DNA from: Chthonomonadales bacterium
Lineage (GTDB): Bacteria > Armatimonadota > Chthonomonadetes > Chthonomonadales > CAJBBX01
Direction: 5' to 3'
Assembly (NCBI GenBank): GCA_038229495.1
Contig: JBBROJ010000004.1
Span: forward strand, 9,320 to 73,319
DNA: 64,000 bases
The notes under the pieces are model-generated. The model was not told where the DNA came from. It made no database searches and was given only the letters and a program-made list of their open reading frames with translations. The position numbers and the translations under genes are program-made. Position 1 is the stretch's first letter; every line of letters begins with the position of its first letter. This document shows, one piece after another, positions 16,066 through 54,730 of this stretch.

Positions 16066-16992
16066 ATGGAGTTGCGCCAAGATACGCAGGAAGAGAGCAT
16101 TTCCCCTTCGCCGGCAATAGTCGAATCGAGCGCGCAACCGGTAACGACCGAAACGCCGCCGGTCGAACAGATAGTCAAAGAGCTGTCGAACCGCAACAAG
16201 GATATCCGCGCGGGGGCTGAGAAGCAGCTTGCCGCGCTCGGACCAGAATCGACGGACGAGCTTCTTCGCGTCCTGGAGATCGAAGGACAGAAATATCGAA
16301 GGCATAGACGGAACACGCGCAAGGGCCTCTATATCGGCGGCGGCATTCTTGTCCTGTATCTTTCCGGAGGCATCATCCTGGGGCTGACTACAGGCCATTG
16401 GGATATGATGACGAACCTTGGGTCGTTCGGCGTATTCGGCGGCGCCGGCGCAGCGGCGGCATTGACTCCGCAGCACAAGAGCATTGTGAAGGTCATCTCC
16501 GAGCTGGATGACATGAGGTCTGTCGGATGGCTTGCCGATACGCTCGATACCCAGGACAAAGAGATCATGACCACCGCCGAAGATACGTTGACGCGGCTGC
16601 TGCCACAGCTTCAGCGCGAAGATGCCGCTTACCTGGACAACGAGAGACGCCGCATGCTCGACCGGAAGCTGGTCAAGACGGACCGCGCGGACTTTGCGCT
16701 CGCAATTCTACTGACCTACGAGCGGCTCGGCGACAGCCGGTCGCTTGCTTCGGTCGAGATTGTGGAGTCTGGGCGGGCCGTTCTCAAGCAGTCCGAGATC
16801 GTACATGCGGCGCAAGCGGCAGCAGCGGCGCTCCGGGTGCGGCAGGCGCTGGAGCACGAAGTCCAGACGCTGCTCCGCCCGTCGTCCACGCCGGTCGAAG
16901 AGGCGGAAATACTGCTTCGGCCCGCGGGCGGAGCAACCCACGAGCCGGAATCGGCGCTGCTCCGACCGGCAATGACAGACACGGACGATTAG
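16066..16992 (+). CDS. Membrane protein with three C-terminal LLRP[SA] motifs (paralogue of 58798..59649)
   Basis: ATG 16066 is preceded by AAGGAG. Two TM helices follow a basic RRHRRNTRK patch, then a helical domain, then TLLRPS / ILLRPA / ALLRPA at the C-terminus. Confidence 0.6.
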   Translation: MELRQDTQEESISPSPAIVESSAQPVTTETPPVEQIVKELSNRNKDIRAGAEKQLAALGPESTDELLRVLEIEGQKYRRHRRNTRKGLYIGGGILVLYLSGGIILGLTTGHWDMMTNLGSFGVFGGAGAAAALTPQHKSIVKVISELDDMRSVGWLADTLDTQDKEIMTTAEDTLTRLLPQLQREDAAYLDNERRRMLDRKLVKTDRADFALAILLTYERLGDSRSLASVEIVESGRAVLKQSEIVHAAQAAAAALRVRQALEHEVQTLLRPSSTPVEEAEILLRPAGGATHEPESALLRPAMTDTDD

Positions 16993-17003
16993 AAAGGCTC
17001 GCA

Positions 17004-17888
17004 ATGGCGCTCTGCCGCTACGAAACATATCTGCCGGCCGTTGGGCGGCAGAAACGCTGGGGATGGGTTCGGGACGGCAGTGTATATCCGCTCGAAGACC
17101 AGGCTGTCGCGCAGCGCTTTCAGTCGCCCGACGCCAATGGGCTTCAATCGCTGGCGGCTGCCGCAATCCCGGAATCGATTCCGTTTTCGGATCTCGACAC
17201 AGCGCCGGGTCGATACGGACATCCTTCGCTCGTCGCCCCGCTGACCACCGGCATGGAGGTCTGGGCAGCGGGTGTCACGTACGAGAGCAGCAAGTTTGCG
17301 CGCATAGCCGAATCGACGGAGGGCGGCGACTTCTATGCCAAAGTCTATGTCGCGGACCGGCCCGAACTTTTCTTCAAGGCCACTCCAGGCCGCACCGTGG
17401 GCCCCAACGATTTCGTCAGAATCAGGCGCGATTCGAAGTGGAACGTGCCGGAACCGGAACTTGCCGTTGTCGTCGCCGCATCGGGTGAAATTCTGGGCTA
17501 CACGGTCGGGAACGACATGTCGTCGCGCGACATCGAGGGCGAGAATCCGCTCTATCTGCCGCAGGCGAAGGTGTACACAGCCTCCTGCGCGCTGGGACCA
17601 GTGATTGTGCCTGTTGGAGAAGTTGACCCGCAGAACCTCGGAATTGTGCTCACGATCACGCGGGGCGGGGAGACGGCCTATCGCGGCGAGACATCCACCG
17701 CGCGCATGAGAAGGCGCGTGGACGATCTGGTGGATTGGTTATTTCGCGAGAACGAGTTCCCGCACGGAGTCGTCCTCTTAACTGGAACCGGCCTCATCCC
17801 TCCCGACAACTTCACTCTACAACCCGGCGACGAGATTGCGATTCAGATCGAGCAGATTGGCACATTGCGTAATCAGGTCGCGGCTTAA
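17004..17888 (+). CDS. FAH-family 2-dehydro-3-deoxy-D-arabinonate dehydratase (KdaD)-like
   Basis: ATG 17004 (MALCRYE). Strong resemblance to KdaD: PELFFKATP, WNVPEPELAVVV, ENPLYLPQAKVY, LLTGTG. The upstream 159 codons of the ORF-track ORF overlap the previous gene and are rejected. Confidence 0.75.
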   Translation: MALCRYETYLPAVGRQKRWGWVRDGSVYPLEDQAVAQRFQSPDANGLQSLAAAAIPESIPFSDLDTAPGRYGHPSLVAPLTTGMEVWAAGVTYESSKFARIAESTEGGDFYAKVYVADRPELFFKATPGRTVGPNDFVRIRRDSKWNVPEPELAVVVAASGEILGYTVGNDMSSRDIEGENPLYLPQAKVYTASCALGPVIVPVGEVDPQNLGIVLTITRGGETAYRGETSTARMRRRVDDLVDWLFRENEFPHGVVLLTGTGLIPPDNFTLQPGDEIAIQIEQIGTLRNQVAA

Positions 17889-17895
17889 CGGCGGC

Positions 17896-18309
17896 TTGTC
17901 CACAGATGACACAGAGGAAGACCAGAGAACGTCGAAGGATTCCAATGAGCGCGATCCGCAGACTTATGCAGTCATTGGCGCAGCAATGGAAGTCCATCGC
18001 GTACTCGGATACGGCTTTCTGGAGGCTGTATATCAGGAAGCGCTTTCTTTGGAATTCGCGTGCCGCAGCTTGCCATTCATCCGCGAAGTGGCGCTTCCCG
18101 TGAAGTATAAGAGCTCCGTACTCGCTTGCGCCTATCGCGCCGACTTTGTTTGCTTCTGCGAAATCATCGTAGAGATCAAGGCATTGGACAACCTGTCAGG
18201 CTCACATCAGGCTCAGGTTATCAATTACCTCCGCGCAACCGGATTCAAGCGCGCTGTCCTACTCAATTTCGGTACGGGGCGGCTCGAGTATACACGCGTC
18301 GTTCTTTAG
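17896..18309 (+). CDS. GxxExxY family protein (PD-(D/E)XK-like)
   Basis: Signature GFLEAVYQEAL, and C-terminus NYLRATGFKRAVLLNFG. TTG 17896 is the first start codon after the upstream stop and is also the first base of the 5' inverted repeat. Confidence 0.8.
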   Translation: MSTDDTEEDQRTSKDSNERDPQTYAVIGAAMEVHRVLGYGFLEAVYQEALSLEFACRSLPFIREVALPVKYKSSVLACAYRADFVCFCEIIVEIKALDNLSGSHQAQVINYLRATGFKRAVLLNFGTGRLEYTRVVL

Positions 18310-18351
18310 CATTTGCACTTATCTGTGTTCATCTGTGTCATCTGTGGACAA
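17896..18351. repeat. Perfect 20-bp inverted repeats bracketing the GxxExxY gene
   Basis: ttgtccacagatgacacaga (17896-17915) is the exact reverse complement of 18332-18351. The bracketed unit fills the gap between the stop at 17888 and the ATG at 18355. Confidence 0.9.
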
Positions 18352-18354
18352 AAC

Positions 18355-19728
18355 ATGAAATCTCTATCCAGTCTAACCGCGCTTCTGCTCTGTGGCATCT
18401 CCGCCGCGGCTCAGACGAAGCCCGCGCCGGTGAGCTACAAGAAGCAGATTGCGCCGATATTTGCGACCTCCTGCAACGCCTGCCACAGCGCCGCCACGCC
18501 GCAGAGCAAGCTCAACACGACAGCCTATGCGGCACTGATGACGGGTGGCTCGCGCGGCAAGGTTATTTTGCCTGGAAACGCGGCCAACAGCCTGATTGTC
18601 CAGTATATCGAGGGACGCAAGCAGCCGAAGATGCCCATCGGCGGCTCGCTCAAGCCCGCCGAGACTGCGCTCATTCGGCGGTGGATAATGGAAGGGGCGA
18701 AGTCCGACGGCGAAGCCGCGCCCATCGACCCGTCGAAGGTGTCCGGTACGGGCGGAATCCCCGTGCGTGCAGACATCCTGCCGCAGGCGGCGTCGCTGGC
18801 GTGGAGCAAGGACGGGAAGATTGTGGCCGTAGGAACCTATCGAGAGGTCAAGCTCTTCGAGATGCCGGGCGGCAAGATTCAGCGCACGCTGACCGGCCAT
18901 GCGGACGTGGTGCGCGCGCTGGCGTTCAGCCCCGACGGGACCACGCTGGCTGCGGCGGGAGGAGTTCCGGGGCAGGGCGGTGAAATCCGGCTCTGGAACA
19001 TGGCTGACGGCACGCTGAAAAGGACGCTGACGGGACATACGGACTGCATCTACGGATTCGGCTGGCGGCCCGACGGCAAGCAGTTCGCGACATCCAGCTA
19101 CGACAAGACGGTCAAAATCTGGGACGTCGAGAAGGGCGTATCCATAGCCGATCTGAAGGACCACGCCGACGCGGTCTATGCCGTTGCCTACACGACGAGC
19201 GGCAAGTACCTCGCCACCGCGAGCGCGGACCGCTCGATTCGGGTGTGGGACGCTGCAACGGGCAAGCGGCTTTACACTCTTGCCGGGCATACGGAGATGG
19301 TAACCGGCCTTGCGGCCCATCCGACAGCGGATCAGATCGTCTCCGTGAGCGCCGACAAGACTATGCGGCTCTGGAATCTGAAGCCGGACGGCGGGAGCGC
19401 GGCAAGGACTTCGCCGACGCAGCCGGACGTCCTGACGGACGTGCGCTTCTCCCCGGATGGAAAGTGGATCGTCACCTCGAGCAACGACGGCGCGGTGAAA
19501 ATCTGGAATGCGGACAGCGGCGCGGAGGTCAAGGCGATTCCAAACCCCGATGCGATATTGGCGGTAAGCGTGGACCCCGCAAGCCAACTCGTGGCGGTCG
19601 GCGGGTACGACGGTTCCGCGGTTCTTTACAAGCTCGCCGATGGAGTAAAGACGGCGTCACTCATTACTCTTCCTCGGCGCGTAACGCAGCCCGCGCCGAC
19701 CCCCAAGACAGATGCTCACAGCAAATAG
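18355..19728 (+). CDS. Secreted cytochrome c (PSCyt1-type) domain fused to a WD40 beta-propeller
   Basis: ATG 18355 (MKSLSSLTALLLCGISAAAQ signal peptide). Heme motif CNACH with LIVQYIEG...KMP, then about 7 WD40 repeats (GH...WD/WN). Confidence 0.8.
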   Translation: MKSLSSLTALLLCGISAAAQTKPAPVSYKKQIAPIFATSCNACHSAATPQSKLNTTAYAALMTGGSRGKVILPGNAANSLIVQYIEGRKQPKMPIGGSLKPAETALIRRWIMEGAKSDGEAAPIDPSKVSGTGGIPVRADILPQAASLAWSKDGKIVAVGTYREVKLFEMPGGKIQRTLTGHADVVRALAFSPDGTTLAAAGGVPGQGGEIRLWNMADGTLKRTLTGHTDCIYGFGWRPDGKQFATSSYDKTVKIWDVEKGVSIADLKDHADAVYAVAYTTSGKYLATASADRSIRVWDAATGKRLYTLAGHTEMVTGLAAHPTADQIVSVSADKTMRLWNLKPDGGSAARTSPTQPDVLTDVRFSPDGKWIVTSSNDGAVKIWNADSGAEVKAIPNPDAILAVSVDPASQLVAVGGYDGSAVLYKLADGVKTASLITLPRRVTQPAPTPKTDAHSK

Positions 19729-19740
19729 TGCAATCATGCG

Positions 19741-21723
19741 ATGATGCAGACAAAGGACCGTATGCCCTCACGAATTTTTACAGCTTCGCTCGCGTTCTGC
19801 CTAGCTTCGCTCACGCAAACTGGACGTGCCCAAAACATCGCGGACGTATGGCCTCCCGGAGCGCCCCGCGGCGGGAAGGCGACTGTACAGATCGAAGGCT
19901 CGGGTTTCGTGGGCGCTAAAGCGGCGCTCATCAGTGGGCAGGGCGTGAAGGCGCAAATTGGCGCGCCTGCCGCAAACGGCAATTCGATTCCGCTGACGCT
20001 CGACATTGCGCCGGACGCCGCGCCGGGCCCTTACGAGGTGCGCGTAGTGACGCCGGGCGGCCTGTCGAATCCCGGCTACCTGTGGGTCGGGACATTCAAG
20101 GAGACCCAAGAGAAGGAACCCGATAATCAGCCCGCCGAGGCGATGAAGCTGGACAATCTCCCGATCACCGTGAATGGCCGCGCCAACAACCCGGAGGACG
20201 TGGACTGGTATCAGTTCCACGCGGACGCGGGCGAAACGTTCGTATTCGATATCTGCGCGAACCGGCTCTATGCGCCGCTCGACCCTTTCCTAGAACTGAG
20301 GGACAGCGAGGGAAGGCTGCTCGGATCCGCGATGGAGGGCTATGATCGCGATCCGCGCCTGATTCATACTTTCAAGAAGTCGGGCGAATACAGATTGCAG
20401 GTGCGTGACACGCTCTATCGGGGGGGCGGCAGTTTCATCTACCGGCTGACGCTGGGCAAGATTCCGGTGATTACGTCTCTGACACCTGGAGGCGGGCGGC
20501 GGGGGCAGACCCTGAACGCCGCAGTCGAAGGCTACAATCTGGGCAGCATGAAGACCGTGACGATTCCTCTTCCCGCCGACATGCCGGAGAATCGCACGTG
20601 GTACGCCCTCGTGGATACCCCTAACGGTCCCGCGCTGCCCGTGGCGGTATTCGGGGATGACATGGCGCATACCGTCGCACCGGCCGGGGCGGCCACGCTG
20701 CCGAAAGCCGGTCTGCCCGCCGCGATTGATGGCCGCCTGAACGCCGCGAAAGAGACGCACCTCATTCATTTCGACGCGGAGGCCGGCAAAGCGTATCAGA
20801 TTTCCGTGGCGGCGCGCTCTACTGGCTCGCGCGCGATTCCCTATCTTCGAATCCTGAATGGAGCCGGCAAGGAGCTTCTCAATACCGAGGATCAGATTGG
20901 CCGTGACCCGCAGATCGTCTTCACGCCGCCCGCCAATGGCACGTACAAGATTGAGTTGAGCACGATCGACGCGAAGGGCGGTCCGGACTACTACTACCGC
21001 CTGTTCGTTCGCCCGCCCACAATGCCGGAATTTCGGCTCACCGCTTCACCGGATAATCTCGTGCTCGGCCACGGCCAGACACTGGTCGTGAACGTGGGTC
21101 TGGAGAGGCGCGGCGGCTTCGGCGGGCCTGCAACCATATCTGTGGAAGGGCTGCCGGCAGGCGTAATGGTGAATCCGTTGGTAATAGGTCCCGGCCAAAC
21201 ATCTGGTATCCTAACGCTAACCGCCGCGACCGATGCCGCGCCAGCCAACGCTCCGCTGCGAATCGTGGCCGAGTCGGCGGACGTGAAGGGACCGGATGGA
21301 AAGCCTTTTCGGCTCGGCGCGCTCGTGCTTGCCAACCTGCCGCGTCCGGGAGAGGGCCAGGTCGTTCCGCGCCCGGTGCATTTCCAGATGGCAACCACGA
21401 CCGCCGCCGTCCCGCTATACACATTGACTCCGGAGTCGACGCAGATTACCCTGATGCCGGGCCAGACCGTGATGGTGAAGGTCCGCGCGAATCGCCGCCC
21501 GAACGATAACGCCGCAAATCCCGCCATTGCCTTGACGCTGGCGAATCTGCCGCCCGGAGTGAGCGCCGAGACGCCCGCCATCCCCGACAAGCAGACCGAA
21601 ATCACAATCAAGCTCACTGCCGCCGGAAACGCGGGTCCGTTCTCCGCCAGCGCACTCCTCACCGGCAAGCTCGGCAACGACGTTCAGCCTGCCCCCGCGA
21701 TTCAGGTTACGGTAAAGAAATAG
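19741..21723 (+). CDS. Secreted protein with pre-peptidase C-terminal (PPC)-type beta-sandwich domains
   Basis: Signal peptide. DVDWYQFHADAGETFVFD...GEYRLQVRD is a typical PPC domain and a second similar module is present. Starts 12 nt after the previous gene. Confidence 0.65.
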   Translation: MMQTKDRMPSRIFTASLAFCLASLTQTGRAQNIADVWPPGAPRGGKATVQIEGSGFVGAKAALISGQGVKAQIGAPAANGNSIPLTLDIAPDAAPGPYEVRVVTPGGLSNPGYLWVGTFKETQEKEPDNQPAEAMKLDNLPITVNGRANNPEDVDWYQFHADAGETFVFDICANRLYAPLDPFLELRDSEGRLLGSAMEGYDRDPRLIHTFKKSGEYRLQVRDTLYRGGGSFIYRLTLGKIPVITSLTPGGGRRGQTLNAAVEGYNLGSMKTVTIPLPADMPENRTWYALVDTPNGPALPVAVFGDDMAHTVAPAGAATLPKAGLPAAIDGRLNAAKETHLIHFDAEAGKAYQISVAARSTGSRAIPYLRILNGAGKELLNTEDQIGRDPQIVFTPPANGTYKIELSTIDAKGGPDYYYRLFVRPPTMPEFRLTASPDNLVLGHGQTLVVNVGLERRGGFGGPATISVEGLPAGVMVNPLVIGPGQTSGILTLTAATDAAPANAPLRIVAESADVKGPDGKPFRLGALVLANLPRPGEGQVVPRPVHFQMATTTAAVPLYTLTPESTQITLMPGQTVMVKVRANRRPNDNAANPAIALTLANLPPGVSAETPAIPDKQTEITIKLTAAGNAGPFSASALLTGKLGNDVQPAPAIQVTVKK

Positions 21724-29723: not shown

Positions 29724-29976
29724 AAATCCCAATGTTGTTGAAAGGACGCTTGGCTGCACCCAAAAATGGCCTGCTGCCGGGTTTGCGCGTGTCGTACTAC
29801 GCGTGTAAAACCGGTGTCTGGGGAGCCTTCGGCCAAACGTCCGCCGGACGGTAAACACATTCAATATACATCAAATCAGCATTTTCCCACCCGCGAGGGC
29901 GTTCGGCGGCTTGTCCGCCCCCCAGACACCGGTTTTACACCGGTGGTGGGATCAGCATTCAACAACAATGGGATTT
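29724..29976. repeat. About 250-bp element with nested inverted repeats (MITE-like or a structured RNA)
   Basis: Outer inverted repeat aaatcccaatgttgttgaa (29724-29742) versus 29958-29976, 18/19 matching. Inner perfect 21-bp inverted repeat gtgtaaaaccggtgtctgggg (29803-29823) versus 29920-29940. Confidence 0.8.
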
Positions 29977-31514: not shown

Positions 31515-31644
31515 TACTTTTGTCGATAACCGGATCGCGCTGCGCGGACTACGCGTGCCGTGGGCAATCCGTAACATCCTCCTTGCCCGCGCAGGCATCT
31601 TTCGAACGCTCCAATCCCAGATTCTTCACTGTGAGGCACACCCA

Positions 31645-32034
31645 ATGCTTGACCGTCTCCTCAACACAGGCACTTTCCAGGCAGCGCAAGGCGCGTTGGA
31701 CGGCCTCTCCGCCCGGCACGCGGCCATTGCGGATAACCTCGCAAACGTCAATACGCCCGGCTATAAGCGAAAAGAGGTCCCTTTCGAGGATACTCTTGCC
31801 CGCGCTGTCAAGGACCAGACCTCGCAGTGCACCGGTGCGGCGAGCGGCCCGGTCCGTCCCTTTACGCCGTGCGTGACGCGAGACACCGATTCCCAGGCCC
31901 GCGCCGACGGCAACAATGTAGACATTGAAGCAGAGATGGTCCGCCTCGCGGATACCAGCCTGCGCTACGAAACGCTGACTCAGTACGTAGGCGGATTCTT
32001 CTCCGGCCTCAAGGCAGTTATTAACGCGAAGTAG
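31645..32034 (+). CDS. flgB: Flagellar basal-body rod protein FlgB
   Basis: ATG 31645 (MLDRLL...). NLANVNTPGYKRK rod motif. First gene of the cluster. Confidence 0.9.
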   Translation: MLDRLLNTGTFQAAQGALDGLSARHAAIADNLANVNTPGYKRKEVPFEDTLARAVKDQTSQCTGAASGPVRPFTPCVTRDTDSQARADGNNVDIEAEMVRLADTSLRYETLTQYVGGFFSGLKAVINAK

Positions 32035-32102
32035 GAAGTAGGAAGCCGGAAGACGGAATTCAGAAGAACGGCCCTGCTTCCGACTTCCGACTTCCGGCTT
32101 CC
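32034..32102. repeat. GGAAG array plus inverted CTTCC array (hairpin) in the flgB-flgC spacer
   Basis: ggaagtaggaagccggaagacggaattcagaag ... cttccgacttccgacttccggcttcc, then AGGAG and the flgC ATG. Confidence 0.85.
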
Positions 32103-32113
32103 AGGAGACCAAC

Positions 32114-32557
32114 ATGAGCATCGCCCGTTCTCTCCAGATTAGCGCCAGCGGCCTTACGGCCGAGCGGCTGCGCATGGACGTTATCAGTAACAACATTGCG
32201 AACGTCAATACAACGCAGACAGCCGCGGGTACGCCCTATCGCCGCCAGCACGTCATATTCGCCGCGAGCGAAGGCGGCTCAGATTTTCCCTCTGCCCTCC
32301 GATCCGCGGCTGGAATGCGCTCGTCCGAGCCAAACGGCGGCGGTGTGCGCGTTGCGTCCGTCGAAGCCGACAAGGGCGACTTCAAGCGCGTCAAGGACCC
32401 GGACAGCCCCACCGGCTACACCCTACTGCCCAACATCGAGCCGGTCATGGAGATGGTGGACCTGATCACCGCCACCCGCGCGTACGACGCCGGCGTGACT
32501 GCCATTGGAGCCGCCAAGCAAATGCAGCAGAAAGCTTTGGAGATAGGAAGAGGGTAA
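32114..32557 (+). CDS. flgC: Flagellar basal-body rod protein FlgC
   Basis: SASGLTAERLRMDVISNNIANVNTT, and C-terminal MVDLITATRAYDAG. Confidence 0.95.
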   Translation: MSIARSLQISASGLTAERLRMDVISNNIANVNTTQTAAGTPYRRQHVIFAASEGGSDFPSALRSAAGMRSSEPNGGGVRVASVEADKGDFKRVKDPDSPTGYTLLPNIEPVMEMVDLITATRAYDAGVTAIGAAKQMQQKALEIGRG

Positions 32558-32574
32558 GTAGTCAATTAGTCAAT

Positions 32575-32635
32575 GGGTCAACGAGTAAGTGAACGGCCTC
32601 CCTATTGACTCATTTACCAATTTGCTCGTTGACCC
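32575..32635. repeat. GTCAATG/GTCAACG-family hairpin in the flgC-fliE spacer
   Basis: gggtcaacgag (32575-32585) pairs with ctcgttgaccc (32625-32635). Flanked by gtcaattagtcaatg and ttgactcatttacc units. Confidence 0.7.
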
Positions 32636-32657
32636 GTTAGTGGAAAGGTTTATCACG

Positions 32658-32984
32658 ATGCCGGTTGATGCAATCGCGCCGATAGGGGCGCGTGGAGCGC
32701 AGCAGATTATTCCGAATGAGATGGGCGCGGGCCTGTCGATTCCGGGGGCCGAAACGCAGGACGGCAAGTCCTTCGGACAGTTCCTCACCAATGCGCTGGG
32801 CGACGTAAACGCTCTCCAGCACAATGCAGGTGACATGGTCCAGAAGTTCGCCACCGGCGCGCCGATGGACGTTCACCAGGTGATGATCGCCATTGAGCAG
32901 GCGGGTACCGCGCTGGCGCTCACCACGCAGGTCCGAAACAAGCTGGTCGACGCTTATCAGGAAGTGATGCACACACAGGTCTAG
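32658..32984 (+). CDS. fliE: Flagellar hook-basal body complex protein FliE
   Basis: ATG 32658. SFGQFLTNALGDVNALQ...DVHQVMIAIEQAGTALALTTQVRNKLVDAYQEVM. Confidence 0.9.
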   Translation: MPVDAIAPIGARGAQQIIPNEMGAGLSIPGAETQDGKSFGQFLTNALGDVNALQHNAGDMVQKFATGAPMDVHQVMIAIEQAGTALALTTQVRNKLVDAYQEVMHTQV

Positions 32985-32990
32985 GAGGGA

Positions 32991-33077
32991 GGACGGAAGA
33001 CGGAAGACGGAAGACGGAAGATGCGGGTCTCGGGTGGCCCAGGCTTCCGGCTTCTGACTTCCGGCTTCCGACTTCCG
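32991..33077. repeat. (GGAAGAC)x4 plus an inverted (CTTCCGN) array forming a hairpin in the fliE-fliF spacer
   Basis: ggacggaagacggaagacggaagacggaaga ... cttccggcttctgacttccggcttccgacttccg, about 22-nt loop, then GAGGGG and the fliF ATG. Confidence 0.9.
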
Positions 33078-33096
33078 CATTAAAGAGGGGAACTCG

Positions 33097-34782
33097 ATGC
33101 AGGAAGGTCTGGCCCGGATAAAGCAGCTCTGGCAGGACACCAGCCGGCCGAATCAGATCATGATCTCCGCGGCGGCAGTCGCGGCGCTTGTCGTCGCTAT
33201 CGGATTCGTCTACTGGGCGAGCGCGCCGGAGTATTCGACGCTGGTTTCCAACGCGTCGCCGGAAAACGCGAACAAGATTATCAACCAGCTCAAGGAGAAG
33301 AAGATTGCCTATCGCGCCTCCAACGGTTCCATCGAGGTTCCGGCAGGGCAGAAGGACGAGCTTCTCATGGAGTTGGCGGGCACGGGAGCGCTGGAGCAGG
33401 GTTCCGCCGGCTGGGGAATGCTCGAAAAAGCGCCCTTCGGCCAGACGCAGGCAATGGAGCAGGAGACCATCCGTCACGCCCACGAGGTGATGATGGAACA
33501 GACCATCTCCAAGCTCGCGCCGGTCGCCTCCGCTACGGTCCACTTCACCGATGGCGACAAGAACGAGCTCTTCGATCCGACCAAGAAAGAGGGCACCGCG
33601 AACGTCACCGTCCGCGTCAAGCCCGGCAATGAGCTTACCAAAGAGAACGTCCGCTCCATTGTCGCCCTTCTTCAGAGCGGCTACGCAAACATCCCTTCCT
33701 CCAGCATCTTCGTCGTGGACGGCCAGGGCAGCCTGCGTTGGAACGGCGCGGAGCAGGCTGAGGGCCTCTCCAACTCTGATGAGCGGCAGGTCCAGGAAGC
33801 GCGCAAGGCCGAAGAGCTTTCCCATAAGATTCAGGCGCATATCGATAGAATCGCGGGTCCGGGCAGGTCAACGGTACTTGTCCGCGCCACGCTGAATCTC
33901 GACAAGCGCAAGATACACGAGAACCTGCTGCTGCCGGGCCAGCCGACTACCAAGAGCACGACCGAGGAGTCGCTTTCCGGTGGCGCGCTTGGTAACCGCG
34001 CGGGAGTCCCCGCTTCTCCCGGAGTCGCTTCCAATTCCAACGGCGCGACTCCACCCACGTATGCAGGGTCCAACAGCGTGGATGCGAGCAACGGCAAATA
34101 CAGCAGCACAACCTCGTCGGTAACGACGACGCCCGGCATGCGCGAGACCAATACCGTGGAAGCCCCCGGTGAAATCAAGACCGCGGCCGTCATCGTTACG
34201 CTCGATAAGGCCATCAAGCCGGAGACGATTGCCACACTGAAGGGGCAGATCCCTATTCTTATGGGCGATGATCCGGCGAATCCGAATCCGAATATCAGGG
34301 TGTCCGTGGAAACCGCCGACTTCGACCGTTCGGCGCTCTCCGCGGACGAAAAGGCGGCCAAAGAGGCTGTGACAAACGAGCGCATGAACAAGATGTTGAG
34401 TTATGGCGTTCCGCTCGTTCTCATGCTAGGGATGCTTTTCATTCTTGCCAAGGCGCTCAAGCGTCCGCAGACAGCGGGCATGCTGGCTCGGCATCCATCG
34501 CACGGAGCCAACGGCTTTCAGCTGGCAGGAGCGGGCGGGCACGGCGGTATCAATATGCTGGCGGGTGACGACCTGCCTGCCGGTATGAGTGTCGACCAGG
34601 CGCTCAACGGCGGCGTCGGCAAAATCGTCCCCGTTGGAAGAGAGTCTCTGGACCACACGTTCGACGTCATTTCCGAACAGTTCGACTCGAACCTGGAATC
34701 CATCCTGCACCTTGCAAAGTCCAAGCCAGATACGGTCGCCGCGCTCGTCAAGAGCTGGATGATGACAGAAGAAAAGAAGTAG
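33097..34782 (+). CDS. fliF: Flagellar M-ring/MS-ring protein FliF
   Basis: 561 aa. N-terminal TM helix, YscJ/FliF ring-building motifs, second TM helix (VPLVLMLGMLFIL), C-terminal FliG-binding tail. Confidence 0.93.
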   Translation: MQEGLARIKQLWQDTSRPNQIMISAAAVAALVVAIGFVYWASAPEYSTLVSNASPENANKIINQLKEKKIAYRASNGSIEVPAGQKDELLMELAGTGALEQGSAGWGMLEKAPFGQTQAMEQETIRHAHEVMMEQTISKLAPVASATVHFTDGDKNELFDPTKKEGTANVTVRVKPGNELTKENVRSIVALLQSGYANIPSSSIFVVDGQGSLRWNGAEQAEGLSNSDERQVQEARKAEELSHKIQAHIDRIAGPGRSTVLVRATLNLDKRKIHENLLLPGQPTTKSTTEESLSGGALGNRAGVPASPGVASNSNGATPPTYAGSNSVDASNGKYSSTTSSVTTTPGMRETNTVEAPGEIKTAAVIVTLDKAIKPETIATLKGQIPILMGDDPANPNPNIRVSVETADFDRSALSADEKAAKEAVTNERMNKMLSYGVPLVLMLGMLFILAKALKRPQTAGMLARHPSHGANGFQLAGAGGHGGINMLAGDDLPAGMSVDQALNGGVGKIVPVGRESLDHTFDVISEQFDSNLESILHLAKSKPDTVAALVKSWMMTEEKK

Positions 34783-36756: not shown

Positions 36757-38097
36757 ATGTCCTTAACAATTCCAACTGACGAGCCGCCTGCAATCGACAT
36801 CAGCCGCTACAGGGAATTCCTGGACCGGTTCGATCCGGTGAAGATAAATGGCCGCGTAGTGCAGGTGATCGGACTCGTTATCGAATCGCTGGGGCCGTCC
36901 GCCATGATCGGTGAGGTCTGCAAGGTCTACACGGATCGCACACGCCCGCCGATTACGGCGGAGGTGGTAGGATTCCGCGATAACCGAGTGCTGCTCATGC
37001 CGCTCGGAATTATGGAAGGAATCAAGGCCGGCAGCGAGGTTGTCGCCACTCGGTCGACCCACCATGTTTCCGTCGGTAGCGAGCTGCTTGGCCGGGTGTT
37101 GGACGGCCTGGGAAACCCGATGGACGAACGCGGGCCTCTCCCCACCCATACGCGCTATCCGGTCAATGCCTCGCCTCCCGATTCGCTGAAGCGGCACAGA
37201 ATCACCGAGCCGCTCGGGCTGGGCGTCCGCAGTATCGATGGCTGTCTTACCGTTGGCAAGGGACAGCGCGTCGGCATCTTCGCCGGATCCGGAGTCGGTA
37301 AGAGCACGGCGCTCGGCATGATTGCCCGCAGCACGCAGGCGGACGTGAATGTGATAGCCCTTACGGGAGAGCGCGGACGCGAGGTACGGGATTTTATCGA
37401 GGAATCGCTGGGCGAGGAGGGGTTGAAGCGAACCGTCGTCGTGGTAGCGACGTCCGACCAGCCGGCCCTCGTCCGAATCAAGGCGTCGCTGGTAGCCACG
37501 GCCATTGCGGAGTATTTTCGGGATCAGGGCCTCGACGTGATGCTGATGATGGATTCCGTCACCCGACTCGCTATGGCGCAACGCGAGGTCGGCCTGGCTA
37601 TCGGCGAGCCGCCCGCCACGCGCGGCTACACACCCTCCGTGTTCGCTCTTCTGCCACGACTTCTCGAGCGTTCCGGAGCAGGCGAACGGGGCTCCATTAC
37701 CGGCCTCTACACCGTGCTGGTGGACGGCGACGATATGAACGAGCCGGTCGCCGACGCGGTGCGTGGCATCCTGGACGGCCACATCGTCCTTTCGCGGACC
37801 CTCGCGCAGCAGAATCACTATCCGGCAGTAGATATTCTTCAGAGCGTCTCTCGCGTCATGCCCTCGGTCACCACGGAGGAGCACCGCCAGGCAGCGGGCG
37901 AGCTTCGGAACCTGCTCTCGGCCTACCGGGAAGCGGAAGACCTGATCAATATCGGAGCCTATTCCGAGGGGAGCAACCCGCGCATAGACCGCGCGCGCAA
38001 GTACATCGATGCGATAAACACCTTTCTCCGGCAGCGCACTGACGAGCGCGCCCCTCTTGCTGAAACGATTGGAAAGCTGCTGAGCATGTTCCGATAG
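36757..38097 (+). CDS. fliI: Flagellum-specific ATPase FliI
   Basis: Walker A GSGVGKST, Walker B DVMLMMDS, F1/T3SS ATPase fold. Confidence 0.96.
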   Translation: MSLTIPTDEPPAIDISRYREFLDRFDPVKINGRVVQVIGLVIESLGPSAMIGEVCKVYTDRTRPPITAEVVGFRDNRVLLMPLGIMEGIKAGSEVVATRSTHHVSVGSELLGRVLDGLGNPMDERGPLPTHTRYPVNASPPDSLKRHRITEPLGLGVRSIDGCLTVGKGQRVGIFAGSGVGKSTALGMIARSTQADVNVIALTGERGREVRDFIEESLGEEGLKRTVVVVATSDQPALVRIKASLVATAIAEYFRDQGLDVMLMMDSVTRLAMAQREVGLAIGEPPATRGYTPSVFALLPRLLERSGAGERGSITGLYTVLVDGDDMNEPVADAVRGILDGHIVLSRTLAQQNHYPAVDILQSVSRVMPSVTTEEHRQAAGELRNLLSAYREAEDLINIGAYSEGSNPRIDRARKYIDAINTFLRQRTDERAPLAETIGKLLSMFR

Positions 38098-38100
38098 GAA

Positions 38101-38292
38101 GGTCGTTGGGTCGTTGGCCCCCCGGCCCGCAATTCTGGGGGAGATGCCCCCCGGCCCCCAATTCTGGGGGAGATGCCCCCCGGCCCCCAATTCTGGGGGA
38201 GACGGCATCGGTCGTTGGGTCGTTGGGTCGTTGGGTCGTTGGGTCGTTGGGTGGGGGCGGCTTCCGGCTTCCGACTTCCGGCTTCCGACTTC
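38101..38292. repeat. Composite array: (GGTCGTTG)x2 - 3 x 29-nt G/C hairpin unit - (GGTCGTTG)x5 - (CTTCCGN)x5
   Basis: 29-nt units ccccccggcccSSaattctgggggagaYg at 38118-38146, 38147-38175 and 38176-38204, each containing ccccca-attc-tggggg. Confidence 0.92.
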
Positions 38293-38307
38293 TTATGAGG
38301 TTGCTGC

Positions 38308-38748
38308 GTGAAACGATTCAAGTTCCGTTTTGAAGCCGTGCTGAAGCATCGCGCGGTCATCGAAGAGCTGCGAATGCATGAGTACGTTCGCATACAGGAC
38401 GAGCTTGCCATTTGCGAGGCCCGTCTTGCCGGCTGCCGTGACCAATATGCCCGGACAATCGCGGAGCGGCCCGCAAAGATCGACTTTGAGGACATTCCCC
38501 GGCGCGAGCGCTACCTGGACGTTCTCAATGCAAGAATCGCCCAGGAAGAGCGGCTCCGCGAGGGAATTGCGGCGAGGCTCGATGACGCGCGAACGGCCCT
38601 GATCGCGGCGCGCCAGGCGCGCGAGGCGCTGAAGCGAATACGCGAGGCGGACCAGGCGGAGCACCTGAGACTCGCGCTGCTGGCCGAACAGAATGCGCTC
38701 GACGAGATGTCCTCGCAGCGCTATCGAAGGGCGCAAGCAGCGCGGTAA
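38308..38748 (+). CDS. fliJ: Flagellar export chaperone FliJ
   Basis: GTG start. MKRFKFRFEAVLKHR..., coiled-coil of 146 aa, positioned after fliI. Confidence 0.85.
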   Translation: MKRFKFRFEAVLKHRAVIEELRMHEYVRIQDELAICEARLAGCRDQYARTIAERPAKIDFEDIPRRERYLDVLNARIAQEERLREGIAARLDDARTALIAARQAREALKRIREADQAEHLRLALLAEQNALDEMSSQRYRRAQAAR

Positions 38749-38750
38749 CA

Positions 38751-38911
38751 GTCAATGAGTGTTGAGTGTTGAGTGCTGGGTGCTGAGTACGCAGCAGCCT
38801 CCGTGTTGCGCCGTTCCCATTGACCCAACGACCCAACGACCCAACGACCCATTGACCCATTGACCCATTGACCCATTGACCCATTGACCCATTGACCCAT
38901 TGACCCAACGA
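38751..38911. repeat. TGAGTGY array, reverse copy of the 26-nt motif, then 12 x 8-bp CCCAWYGA units
   Basis: gtcaatgagtgttgagtgttgagtgctgggtgctgag. Motif at 38787-38812 (minus strand). (cccattga/cccaacga)x12 at 38816-38911, ending 7 nt before the ATG. Confidence 0.9.
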
Positions 38912-38918
38912 GGGAAAC

Positions 38919-39536
38919 ATGAGCATCGAAGCCATCAATGCGCGAATATCGGAGATACAGGCCCGGATTGACGCTCTAGCCATAAGGCCGGAGCCGCAGG
39001 CCGCGCCGATCACGCCAACCGGGCCTCAATTGCCTGCTGGCGCGCAAAAGCCGGCAACTGTCGAGCCGTTCAACGTGACATTCGAGCAGGCGCAGGGGCG
39101 CGCGATTCTGCGGCCCACTTCCGCGACTGGCGCATCTGCCGGGGAGAAGTTCTCGCCATACGTTGAGGGCCTCATCTCCAAGTACAGCGGGCTGAACAGC
39201 CTCGATCCGAATCTCGTCCGCGCAGTCATAACGGCTGAATCCGATGGAGACGTAAATTGCCGCTCGACCAAAGGGGCGATGGGACTCATGCAGCTTATGC
39301 CGGATGAGGTAGCGGGCTACGGAATCAAGAACCCGTTCGACGCGGAAGAGAGCATTAAGGGCGGCACGCGCCAACTCGCGGAGAAGCTGAAACTCTTTAA
39401 TGGCGACGTGACCAAGGCTCTGGCCGCCTACAATGCGGGCAGCGGCGCGGTGCGAAAGTACAACGGTGTTCCGCCCTATCATGAGACTCAGCACTACGTT
39501 AAGAAGATTCTCGCCATGGTCGGGCAGTCACGGTAA
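38919..39536 (+). CDS. Lytic transglycosylase (SLT domain), flagellar-cluster associated
   Basis: AESDGDVNCRSTKGAMGLMQLMP (catalytic Glu context) and AYNAGSGAV. Confidence 0.85.
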   Translation: MSIEAINARISEIQARIDALAIRPEPQAAPITPTGPQLPAGAQKPATVEPFNVTFEQAQGRAILRPTSATGASAGEKFSPYVEGLISKYSGLNSLDPNLVRAVITAESDGDVNCRSTKGAMGLMQLMPDEVAGYGIKNPFDAEESIKGGTRQLAEKLKLFNGDVTKALAAYNAGSGAVRKYNGVPPYHETQHYVKKILAMVGQSR

Positions 39537-40230: not shown

Positions 40231-42729
40231 TTGGTGAATCCCACAGTACCTGCCGTTTCCCAGGCAAGCGCTAGCACAGGCGCCCTCGAACAGACGTCCG
40301 CGACTTCCGCTCCCGGCGACATTTCCGATGGAAGTCCCTTCGCAAATGTTCTTGCTCACACCGTGGTTTCGAATAGTACTACCGGAAAGGGCCGTCCCGC
40401 CGCGCGGGGATCGAAGCCAGATCCGAGCGGCTCACCGGCCACCGCGGACGAGAGTGCGGAAGCCGATATGCCCCCGCAAGAAGGCGTACCCTCCGCCAAT
40501 TCGGCGGTCTCAGCTATGCTAAGTGCCGTATTCGCCGGAATCAATCCCGGGCCCCAGGGCCTCGACGTTGTGACGTCAACGAAGGCCTCGGGCTCTTCAT
40601 CCGTCAAGCCGGCATCCTGCACCACGGCACCTGGAGGTACGGAGAAGCAACACGCGCAGCCACTTGTGAAGTTATTCACGCAGCCGATCACTCCCATCAC
40701 TCCCATCACTCCCATCACTCCCATCACTCCCATCACTCCCATCACTCCCATGACTCCCATCACTCCCATCACTCCCATCACTCCCATCACTCCCATGACT
40801 CCCATGACTACCATGATTACCATGACTACCGTGGCAGCCTCAACCGATAACGCGCAATTGGTGGACGCCGTAACTACGACTACGACTACAACCGGGCACA
40901 GCAAGGTCGTAACCGGCGAGCTAAAAGCGCAGACACCGATTCCTCAAACCGGTTCCTATGGGCCCCACGACTTAGATGCAGCAAATGCTGTAACAGCCAT
41001 GTCTGTCTCGGTTCATACCGCGCCAATTAAGCCTTTGCCGGAGATCGCCACAGCGCAGTCGCTTCTTACGCAGACTGCTGGAGTCGAATTTCCGCAGGCA
41101 GGCGCAACCAATAGCGTGACAGGAGAGGTTACAGCGCCGGGAACTTCGATTCCGACACAAAATGAGTCCAAGTCGCAAGCTGCGTCTATCGCGCAGGCAA
41201 CGCCCGTTATGCAGGCAACGCCCAGTGTGCAAGTTGCGCCCAGTATACAGGCTGCGATTATCGCGCAGGCAACGCCCAGTAAGCAGGCTGCGACTATCGC
41301 GCAGGCAACGCCCATTATGCAGGCAACGCCCGTTATGCAGTCATTGCCTGCCACGTATGCCGCGCCCGGTATGGAGGTCGTCTCGAGCATACAGGTCTCT
41401 CCCGGCGTACAGGCAGCATCGGTCGCGGCGCAGGGTTCGCCGCTCACCGCGGACGCGGGAATCAAAGGCATAACAGGCATAACAGCCATTGCAGGCATAA
41501 GCAGGAAGCCGGCGCCGGCGAACGTTACCGCCCCGGACGGACGTACCGGACAGTCAGCGGCTAAAGCCGCAATCTCTCCAGTCTCTCCGATCTCACGTGA
41601 AGCTGATATGCGCCCGGCGAGCCTACCCACCGTGGATCCAGGCGCTCCGTCGAATTCACGTTCACAGCCGATTCCCGCTGGGGCAATTCAGCCGCAGGAA
41701 AAATTGACGCGAACTCTGTTGACGAGTGCGCCGCAGCCCGACAATTCCCAGCCATCGGAGCACACCGCTTTGGGTGTCGCCGCGCCCAAGTCGGCTGTGC
41801 TCGCGACAACAGCGCCGGCCGCTCAACTCGGCGCGCCGGCCCTCATGGCGTCCGAAGCGGCAAACCCGGTTGACCCGCGCCAGGCGCAGACGACTGGACA
41901 AGGGATCAACCCCAATTTGCGGCAAATTCCCGCCGGCGCCCCGGCCATCTCGACCGCGCCCGCCGGCAATCAGACATCCCTGTCGGCTGCCCTGCTTTCG
42001 GCAGCCGTTCCACCGGACAACAGCCGGCCCCTCGACCGAAACTTCGCGATGGAGCGAACGACAATGACGTCGCTCGGAAGCACGGCAATGGCTGCGTCCA
42101 CCATAGGCCAGGCGGCTTTGGGAGAAGAGCAGAGCGCGGCTGATAAAGAGCGCCGCTCTTCCCCCGGACCGGATACCTCCGATCCGAAGCTTGGGCAGAC
42201 GGCGACCACCGGCAGCGCGACCGCCGAGTTCTCTCTCAAGGCCGCCCGAATTGAGGCAGCCGCGCAGCCGCCGCCGCACGACCGAATGCACGTCGTGGAG
42301 CAGGTCATGCAAAAAATGGAGACTTTGCGGCTCTCGCATGGCCACCAGGAGGTGACCGTCCATTTGCGACCCGATCACCTGGGGGACCTTCGTCTTACGA
42401 TCGTCGCCGACGGCCATAACGTCACGGCCACGATCGTGGCGGAGACTGCCGCCGCGAGTGAAGCAGTGAGAGAGGGCCATGAGCAGCTTCGCTCCGCGCT
42501 GGAACAGAAAGGTTACTCGCTTCAGGGGCTCGACGTCTCACTCGACGCCTCATTCAGTAACAGCGGTGGTGAACAGAAGTTCCTGCCCTTTGAGCAGAAT
42601 CAGCAGCCGTCCGGGCCAATGCGATCCTACGCCTCGCCCGACAACTTGGAGCCCGCTATTCACTTGCCTTTGGAAACGCGCTCCATGGTTGTATCGCGGG
42701 GAGCCGGAAGGCTGGACTATCAGGCATGA
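40231..42729 (+). CDS. fliK: Flagellar hook-length control protein FliK (unusually long, repeat-rich)
   Basis: 832 aa. C-terminal Flg_hook domain (VHLRPDHLGDLRLTIVADGHNVTATIVAE). Disordered Pro/Thr/Ala/Gln-rich N-terminal two thirds. TTG/GTG start. Confidence 0.85.
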   Translation: MVNPTVPAVSQASASTGALEQTSATSAPGDISDGSPFANVLAHTVVSNSTTGKGRPAARGSKPDPSGSPATADESAEADMPPQEGVPSANSAVSAMLSAVFAGINPGPQGLDVVTSTKASGSSSVKPASCTTAPGGTEKQHAQPLVKLFTQPITPITPITPITPITPITPITPMTPITPITPITPITPMTPMTTMITMTTVAASTDNAQLVDAVTTTTTTTGHSKVVTGELKAQTPIPQTGSYGPHDLDAANAVTAMSVSVHTAPIKPLPEIATAQSLLTQTAGVEFPQAGATNSVTGEVTAPGTSIPTQNESKSQAASIAQATPVMQATPSVQVAPSIQAAIIAQATPSKQAATIAQATPIMQATPVMQSLPATYAAPGMEVVSSIQVSPGVQAASVAAQGSPLTADAGIKGITGITAIAGISRKPAPANVTAPDGRTGQSAAKAAISPVSPISREADMRPASLPTVDPGAPSNSRSQPIPAGAIQPQEKLTRTLLTSAPQPDNSQPSEHTALGVAAPKSAVLATTAPAAQLGAPALMASEAANPVDPRQAQTTGQGINPNLRQIPAGAPAISTAPAGNQTSLSAALLSAAVPPDNSRPLDRNFAMERTTMTSLGSTAMAASTIGQAALGEEQSAADKERRSSPGPDTSDPKLGQTATTGSATAEFSLKAARIEAAAQPPPHDRMHVVEQVMQKMETLRLSHGHQEVTVHLRPDHLGDLRLTIVADGHNVTATIVAETAAASEAVREGHEQLRSALEQKGYSLQGLDVSLDASFSNSGGEQKFLPFEQNQQPSGPMRSYASPDNLEPAIHLPLETRSMVVSRGAGRLDYQA
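40687..40830 (+). repeat. In-frame 9-bp microsatellite (atcactccc)n inside fliK
   Basis: 16 consecutive units encoding ITPx7-MTP-ITPx4-MTP-MTT-MIT-MTT. Confidence 0.95.
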
Positions 42730-54610: not shown

Positions 54611-54730
54611 GGGAAGTCGGAAGTCGGAAGACGGAAGTCAGAACCCCATCGACCGATGCCGTCTCCCCCAGGATTGGGAGCCGGGGGGCGTCTCCCCCAG
54701 GATGGGGGGCCCGGGGGCCAGCGACCCAAC
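54611..54730. repeat. Inverted copy of the 38101-38292 composite: (GGAAGTC)x4 - 2 x 29-nt G/C hairpin unit - CGACCCAAC
   Basis: Units cgtctcccccaggattgggagccgggggg (54660-54688) and cgtctcccccaggatggggggcccggggg (54689-54717) are reverse complements of the ccccccggcccccaattctgggggagacg family. Confidence 0.88.

Follow-up and report, generated by a model that had tools for sequence, protein, structure and literature searches.

A GxxExxY gene of the PD-(D/E)XK fold enclosed by inverted heptamer arms in a Chthonomonadales bacterium and across bacterial phyla

The bracketed gene and its repeat arms

GxxExxY proteins (PF13366) form a family of 14,571 clusters at 50% identity that is without known function or a solved structure detectable by sequence, and they figure in the literature in a passing mention in a reverse-transcriptase classification paper and as a row in a 2012 catalogue of the PD-(D/E)XK superfamily. 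One such gene lies in a 64-kb stretch of contig JBBROJ010000004.1 from a Chthonomonadales bacterium (assembly GCA_038229495.1), hereafter the window, where it occupies a 456-bp unit bounded by inverted repeat arms and lodged between a gene of the fumarylacetoacetate-hydrolase (FAH) family and a gene encoding a WD40 protein (Table 1). An earlier note on this DNA had proposed that the unit is either an insertion cassette or a transcript whose ends pair into a long-range stem.

Table 1. Coordinates of the GxxExxY unit and its neighbours in the window
Feature	Position	Strand	Description
5' arm	17896..17922	+	TTGTC, CACAGAT 17901-17907, GA, CACAGAG 17910-17916, degenerate third unit
GxxExxY open reading frame	17896..18309	+	137 aa if TTG 17896 is the start; stop TAG 18307-18309
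3' arm	18321..18351	+	ATCTGTG at 18321, 18331 and 18340 (spacing 10 and 9 nt), then GACAA
Upstream host gene, FAH family	17004..17888	+	PF01557
Downstream WD40 gene	18355..19728	+	signal peptide, cytochrome-like N-terminus, WD40 propeller

The 20-nt sequence TTGTCCACAGATGACACAGA at 17896-17915 is, as the earlier note had stated, the perfect reverse complement of 18332-18351, and the repeat is extendable to 27 nt with 93% complementarity (17896-17922 with 18325-18351). The 3' arm has a tandem structure to which Tandem Repeats Finder (TRF) assigned a period of 9 and 2.7 copies, its segment 18325-18351 being the part complementary to the 5' arm. The 5' arm fits the family consensus ttATC-C(G/A)CAGAT-NN-C(G/A)CAGAT-NNN-C(G/A)CAGAT and also codes for the N-terminal tail of the GxxExxY open reading frame (ORF), which is the single ORF between the arms. 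The close fit between the neighbours was likewise borne out, about 7-8 nt separating the FAH-family stop (17888) from the start of the 5' arm (17896) and 3 nt separating the end of the 3' arm (18351) from the ATG of the WD40 gene (18355). The 16-mer core CCACAGATGACACAGA, with up to 3 mismatches allowed, has two sites in the 64-kb window, both of them the cassette arms, and the cassette had no match in Rfam. As an explanation, a chance match is practically negligible: short inverted repeats do arise randomly and nothing further speaks for it, whereas 64 kb of sequence should by chance contain about 6e-5 perfect 20-nt inverted repeats within 1 kb (6.4e7 position pairs x 4^-20), and the same repeat recurs in about 70 independent loci.

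The encoded protein scored 134.1 bits against TIGR04256 (cutoff 35) and 130.4 bits against PF13366 (PDDEXK_3; cutoff 22), its sole Pfam match. The motif G40-F-L-E43-A-V-Y46 together with D83, E93 and K95 was invariant in a 25-sequence alignment, the E...D...ExK residues being intact within a conserved PD-(D/E)XK domain that spans about 17962-18303. The AlphaFold2 (AF2) model, with a predicted local distance difference test (pLDDT) score of 91.2, showed the element order H-H-E-E-E-H-E-E of the PD-(D/E)XK alpha/beta fold, so that profiles, catalytic residues and predicted fold all sustain the assignment made in the earlier note. In the Foldseek comparison the best PDB neighbours were Cas4 SSO0001, lambda exonuclease, RecE, a tRNA-splicing endonuclease and Hjc, with TM-scores of at most 0.5; judged from the predicted model, these neighbours are generic, distant PD-(D/E)XK proteins and include no close structural or functional relative. 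A PDB sequence search with the window protein gave no match, and PADLOC and PHROG searches gave no family match. An exact copy of the protein is recorded solely on a Logan contig of 955 nt, which is 99.9% identical to the window.

The start of the ORF is less clear-cut. TTG 17896, which the earlier note had taken for the only plausible start, is indeed the sole in-frame canonical start codon from the upstream stop to the conserved domain; the same TTG equally belongs to the repeat consensus (ttGTC-C...), and its status as the true start is uncertain. The family domain begins at residue 23 and the first 22 residues therefore come from the repeat arm. The in-arm ATG (17906), a commonly used start in homologues, is out of frame in the window copy. 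Among 61 loci, an in-frame ATG lies within the 5' arm in 26 and between arm and domain in 28, and only 6 have none upstream of the domain, which makes the 5' end of the window copy atypical. The NCBI annotation of the window gene (P0001, 107 aa) starts at the internal ATG 17986 and would thereby lose invariant residues. Homologues with 59-77% identity carry variable N- and C-terminal tails that resemble translated repeats (MTQMNTD, KSADNNQ, NLRKSAQSAD), and the ORF runs into or beyond the start of the 3' arm in 69% of loci. For annotation, this means that the terminal tails of GxxExxY proteins are translated repeat arms and that their start codons are often mis-set. In addition, some members of 250-295 aa contain tandem double GxxExxY domains (P0263, P0285, P0294, P0307, P0317, P0346 and P0390).

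Arms and units across the family

The family sample comprised 80 homologous loci from one-genome-per-species contigs, in 78 of which the arms were assessed; the sampled phyla were at least ten, including Planctomycetota, Verrucomicrobiota, Chloroflexota, Acidobacteriota, Pseudomonadota, Bacteroidota, Nitrospirota and Gemmatimonadota. About 70 of the 78 loci carry the 5' arm (A)TCC(G/A)CAGAT-NN-C(G/A)CAGAT-NNN-C(G/A)CAGAT and its reverse complement as the 3' arm. Comparable flanking repeats therefore accompany other members of the family, and neither of the findings that the earlier note had named as telling against it, a relative with the gene at the same site but no inverted repeats or GxxExxY paralogues in this genome without comparable flanking repeats, was encountered. 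The best inverted repeat between the upstream and downstream flanks had a median score of 19, compared with 9 for direct repeats and 7.7 for shuffled flanks. Each arm typically contains three units, spaced 9 nt apart in 134 cases and 10 nt in 59, and the consensus ttATC-CGCAGAT is common to both ends, similarity ceasing a few bases outside it in the 61 aligned ends. Family arms measure about 28-36 nt and the whole unit has a median span of 469 nt. Beside the cassettes of two unrelated genomes, a half-size ORF resembling HsdS, the specificity subunit of type I restriction systems, stands just after the GxxExxY cassette and is itself bracketed by forward and reverse CNCAGAT arms (L019, 3434-4148; L080, 3372-4286).

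The association of the unit with the gene is specific. The 455 kb of GxxExxY loci contained 216 motif blocks, of which 161 fell within the cassette zone, against 6 in 344 kb of control loci and none in shuffled sequence. These counts bear on the view that the repeat is just one more of the abundant intergenic tandem arrays of this genome, with no specific tie to GxxExxY genes. Dozens of 7-9-nt tandem arrays do occur in the window, and several form inverted pairs around normal genes, namely FliJ and FlgC-FliE. Against this, the cassette is the only place in the window with the CNCAGAT unit, GxxExxY genes from many unrelated phyla are flanked by that unit, and it is about 8-fold rarer in the control loci (related acidobacteria) and absent in shuffles, which leaves the generic explanation very improbable.

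The other repeats of the window are of several kinds. TRF reported about 90 such short-unit arrays in the 64 kb. Spacers of the flagellar cluster (31555-33140 and 36757-38920) are filled with tandem GGTCGTTG/CCCAACGA, GGAAGNC/GNCTTCC and TGAGTGC, and the arrays form inverted pairs at FlgB/FlgC-FliE/FliF and at FliI/FliJ/next gene. Three direct copies of a 29-nt unit with an internal palindrome, GCCCCCCGGCCCCCAATTCTGGGGGAGAT, lie at 38117-38202, and 16 kb from them, at 54660-54718, is a related array with two copies (CGTCTCCCCCAGGATGGGGAGCCGGGGGG), both arrays adjoining heptamer or octamer arrays. At 29796-29947, two arms of 31 nt with 87% complementarity, separated by 90 nt, form a further inverted repeat (ACTACGCGTGTAAAACCGGTGTCTGGGGAGC...); it contains no tandem units and matched no Rfam family at the gathering threshold. 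A 9-nt unit is repeated about 15 times at 40687-40830, and an 18/36/54-nt unit about 4-8 times at 41175-41340; these may be coding.

The two arms of a cassette change together. With equal optimisation, the complementarity of arms from the same cassette (median 19) exceeded that of arms from different cassettes (median 12; p=9e-20). Co-variation was tested on two ungapped alignments of 18 loci each with 500 shuffles. Of all cells, 84-87% pair, and both sides change in 15-16 of 34 pairs; the covariation score was 0.17-0.21 compared with 0.10-0.11 after shuffling, a level reached by 0 of 500 shuffles, and slid controls gave only 27-44% pairing. The heptamer cores are invariant in both arm alignments, the purine/pyrimidine (R/Y) position of the units covaries (G·C or A·T in 91 of 108 cells), and the first spacer base covaries as well (T·A with G·C), while the second spacer base is near random, one position per unit being free. 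Such position-specific co-variation excludes a simple recent duplication as the cause of the repeat.

In three apparently orthologous locus pairs the ratio of nonsynonymous to synonymous substitution rates (dN/dS) was 0.055, 0.116 and 0.129, the pairs L049/L070, L067/L070 and L173/L184 having been left out as out of register. Even at a dS of 1.8, the value for the most diverged pair, just 1-2 of 28 arm positions are different. By these sequence comparisons, purifying selection acts on the arms as well as on the protein.

The repeated unit also follows the protein subfamily. In the main clade, formed by the 80 loci with at least 53% identity to the window protein, the unit is CNCAGAT. It is CACGGAT in Treponema (48% identity), of the CGCGAAA type and CACGAAA on the IMG/VR contigs L193 (44%) and L194 (37%), CNCAGAG, for example CACAGAG, in Bacteroides and Bernardetia (34-39%), and ACGCGAAG in Sphingomonas (29%). 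These distant subfamilies retain the arm architecture with different units, and the loose pattern CRCRRAN covers all unit types. Because the type of unit changes along with the protein, the encoded nuclease probably recognises the repeated units.

Placement, insertion and persistence of the unit

Across the family the module sits snugly behind a host gene. Of 50 resolvable loci, 45 have a co-directional upstream neighbour, both neighbours are co-directional in 33 of 45, and the 5' arm starts a median of 11 nt past the upstream stop (interquartile range 5-24), a distribution in which the 8 nt of the window is typical. With X denoting the module, examples in operons are fabD-X-fabG in the fatty-acid operon and gltB-X-gltD, and further settings are radA-X-FAD protein and ade-X-guanylyltransferase; for annotation, operons such as gltBD and fabDG are thus interrupted by GxxExxY elements. 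The region 16900-19900 of the window, which spans the three genes, yielded neither a sigma-70-like promoter nor an intrinsic terminator, and the cassette seems to lack its own promoter. In the predicted minimum-energy RNA fold of 17880-18365 the arm-arm stem closes the cassette. The proposal that the ends pair into a long-range stem, which may act in RNA or in DNA, is supported by this fold and by the co-variation of the arms.

The gltB-gltD junction of Isosphaeraceae exhibits the unit in several states. In Paludisphaera borealis gltB and gltD overlap by 8 nt, which constitutes an empty site; two other loci (L184, L173) contain an intact cassette 12-16 nt past the gltB stop, a third (L182) retains the arms around a frameshifted gene, and a fourth (L183) has an unrelated spacer. 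These empty, filled and decayed states support the insertion cassette proposed in the earlier note, and they supply the empty site whose search it had recommended, albeit at another junction: no empty FAH-WD40 junction was found, the FAH-family relatives recovered in a metagenome scan being at most about 70% identical and none having a WD40 gene downstream. In a comparison directed at a possible single origin of the gltB-gltD cassettes, their cores were 73-79% identical to one another compared with 60-75% to unrelated cassettes. Moreover, many of the nearest GxxExxY relatives of P0010 lie on contigs that match in size those with gltD matches, which suggests that the gltB-gltD insertion was inherited vertically across Isosphaeraceae; among the 120 nearest matches of P0010 there was no same-contig relative. 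At one of the intact loci (L173, 770-1040), the 3' arm is present twice, once degenerate and once intact, with a second, unrelated element, a perfect palindrome (GGGAGGGCGAGGCTCCGGCCGAGC...GCTCGGCCGGAGCCTCGCCCTCCC), between the two copies; the arrangement resembles an insertion accompanied by a duplication of some 50 nt.

Arms also occur in the absence of a gene. Three relatives of the FAH-family gene have hairpins of the same units directly past their stop with no gene inside, and at L138 four CACAGAT units, a 14-nt loop and four complementary units are followed by a T-run. At the P0119 locus (L162-L171; for example L162, 1934-3400), the GxxExxY gene is found within tandem 144-nt units that are gene-less hairpins, 3-4 of them upstream and 2-3 downstream, with a copy number that varies between strains; the unit ends, TTGTCC...GGACAA, are the same as in the window. 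Standalone pairs of forward and reverse arms are also present near other cassettes, and gene-less hairpins or arrays amount to 1.4 per 10 kb near GxxExxY genes.

Much of this layout could also be explained by a role in mRNA only, akin to that of an intervening sequence, in which a stem of about 27-35 bp loops out the ORF and is cut by RNase III, or else preserves translational coupling of the host genes by holding the upstream stop near the downstream start, and in which the heptamer means nothing to the protein. Such a role accounts well for the position and orientation of the module, which follows its upstream gene closely on the same strand, shares a stretch free of promoters and terminators with both neighbours in the window, and has an ORF that begins in or just past the 5' arm and commonly ends in or past the 3' arm. 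The predicted stem, the co-varying arms and the overlapping, coupled genes at the empty gltB-gltD site agree with it, and the size and stem are like those of the Coxiella 23S intervening sequence (PMC4990558). Nevertheless, a stem selected for pairing alone should drift, yet the heptamer is kept across at least ten phyla and changes only with the subfamily. The regular 9-10-nt structure of the units would be left unexplained, as would the gene-less hairpins and tandem arrays if the stem served to insulate an insert. A helix of sense-strand RNA normally favours G·U pairs. An excess of sense-strand G·U, the signature of an mRNA stem, was sought in the arm pairs and not found: mismatches at the R/Y positions were G·T in 9 cases and A·C in 8, and G·U was overall no commoner than A·C (25 versus 37), an unusual pattern if an RNA helix were under selection. 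A role confined to mRNA is therefore considered doubtful, although it has more in its favour than the other alternatives.

The preferred reading, to which a probability of roughly 0.5 is given, is that the 456-bp unit is a long-persisting inserted module made up of a PD-(D/E)XK nuclease and cognate repeat arms that act as a paired stem. The nuclease would recognise its own repeated units, and the stem would more likely form in single-stranded or extruded DNA than in mRNA, given that the arms show no greater tolerance of G·T than of A·C. Nuclease and hairpin would persist as a mostly vertically inherited unit expressed through read-through from the host operon, and new copies may arise either by movement of the whole cassette or by the gene being copied into a hairpin that was already there.

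Several observations weigh against this reading, most of them concerning mobility. No target-site duplication was seen in the 61 aligned ends or at the gltB-gltD junctions, close homologues are nearly all found on one contig each, no near-identical cassette copies in differing contexts occurred among them, and no second GxxExxY copy lay within 3 kb in any of the 80 loci. The family is also rare on plasmids (8 records) and viral contigs (2), and there is no sign of recent mobility in the data. Furthermore, no CNCAGAT hairpin exists in the remainder of the window, and other 7-8-nt inverted arrays bracket the ordinary flagellar genes mentioned above, so that bracketing alone is no proof of a mobile cassette. 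Two members of the family (L187, L188) have no detectable inverted repeat, a Prevotella locus (L191) has direct repeats in place of inverted ones, and in L162 the gene replaces the right arm of its own unit. Finally, the argument for DNA over RNA is built on small mismatch counts, and recognition of the units by the nuclease is deduced from their co-inheritance and from the change of unit with protein. Identical proteins in different contexts were considered as a separate indication of mobility and discarded, P0119 and P0021 (13-15 contigs) each representing a single locus repeatedly sampled.

More tentatively, it is possible that GxxExxY proteins and heptamer arrays together constitute a new and widespread class of nuclease-plus-hairpin elements, a PD-(D/E)XK counterpart of the pairing of repetitive extragenic palindromic (REP) sequences with REP-associated tyrosine transposases (RAYT). 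The nuclease of each subfamily would recognise a 7-base unit of its own in a folded DNA stem, make or maintain hairpins at the 3' ends of genes and ride in operons without breaking them, and other tandem-unit hairpins in such genomes may belong to the same class. These elements may explain some of the tandem-unit hairpins in intergenic spacers of Acidobacteriota, Planctomycetota and other phyla, and they may represent a hitherto unrecognised class of element that persists in selfish or domesticated form. With conserved, co-varying arms and a unit that changes with the protein, an anonymous hypothetical protein becomes a testable system, and one can now propose specific DNA or RNA substrates for GxxExxY proteins.

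Comparison with known systems

The architecture of GxxExxY genes and repeat arms, which crosses phyla, appears to be previously undescribed, no prior description having been found in full-text searches on this family, and the known systems that combine a single ORF with flanking or terminal repeats resemble it to different degrees. Insertion sequences (IS) and miniature inverted-repeat transposable elements (MITEs) share with it the inverted terminal repeats around a single ORF and the shorter gene-less derivatives with the same ends. In contrast to them, the GxxExxY module lacks a DDE or any other known transposase, showed no target-site duplication and does not occur in sets of near-identical copies, and its dN/dS values and arm conservation point to long vertical persistence. 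Integron cassettes differ in having a single 3' attC site and being arrayed next to an integrase and attI, whereas the GxxExxY module has repeats on both sides and ordinary operon neighbours. The free-standing homing endonuclease genes of T4-like phages are similar in that a small nuclease gene is wedged between conserved co-directional genes and shows presence/absence polymorphism at one junction; unlike them, the GxxExxY module resides in cellular chromosomes rather than phages and possesses conserved flanking inverted repeats, which are not a known feature of homing endonuclease genes.

The intervening sequences of 23S rRNA genes in Coxiella and Leptospira match the module in shape. The Coxiella element measures 428-444 nt and has a 28-bp stem and one ORF, and is cut by RNase III (PMC4990558). 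The two systems agree in length (about 430-470 nt), in having terminal inverted repeats that form a stem of about 28 bp (27 nt in the window) around one small ORF, and in their history, being sporadically distributed and then maintained vertically, with an ORF that decays in place (PMC4990558). The differences lie in the site, since the GxxExxY module is inserted between protein-coding genes instead of helix 25 or 45 of 23S rRNA and the 64-kb window contains no rRNA; in the cargo, a PD-(D/E)XK protein as opposed to the S23p four-helix bundle (PF05635); and in the conserved repeated heptamer of the GxxExxY arms. An approximate probe sequence for the same arms around four-helix-bundle genes gave no match in the sampled loci.

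In REP/RAYT systems (REPtrons), tnpA_REP is bordered by palindromic repeats, is inherited mostly vertically in a housekeeping-like manner and is rare on plasmids (PMC8266576). The GxxExxY module parallels them in its nuclease-type gene bordered by cognate palindromic repeats, in gene-less repeat copies that are intergenic and often near the gene, and in mostly vertical inheritance with rarity on plasmids. Its enzyme, however, is of the PD-(D/E)XK class and not an HUH/Y1 transposase (TnpA_REP), its arms consist of tandem 7-mers with the ends ttATC-CGCAGAT and carry no GTAG or CGTC tag, the 5' and 3' arms pair across the gene between them, and its members are very many family-wide, compared with one copy per genome type. 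As enzyme class, tag, host site and cargo differ, the module belongs to neither REP/RAYT nor the 23S intervening sequences; by analogy, the closest description is that it behaves most like a REP/RAYT system and is shaped like an ORF-bearing 23S intervening sequence.

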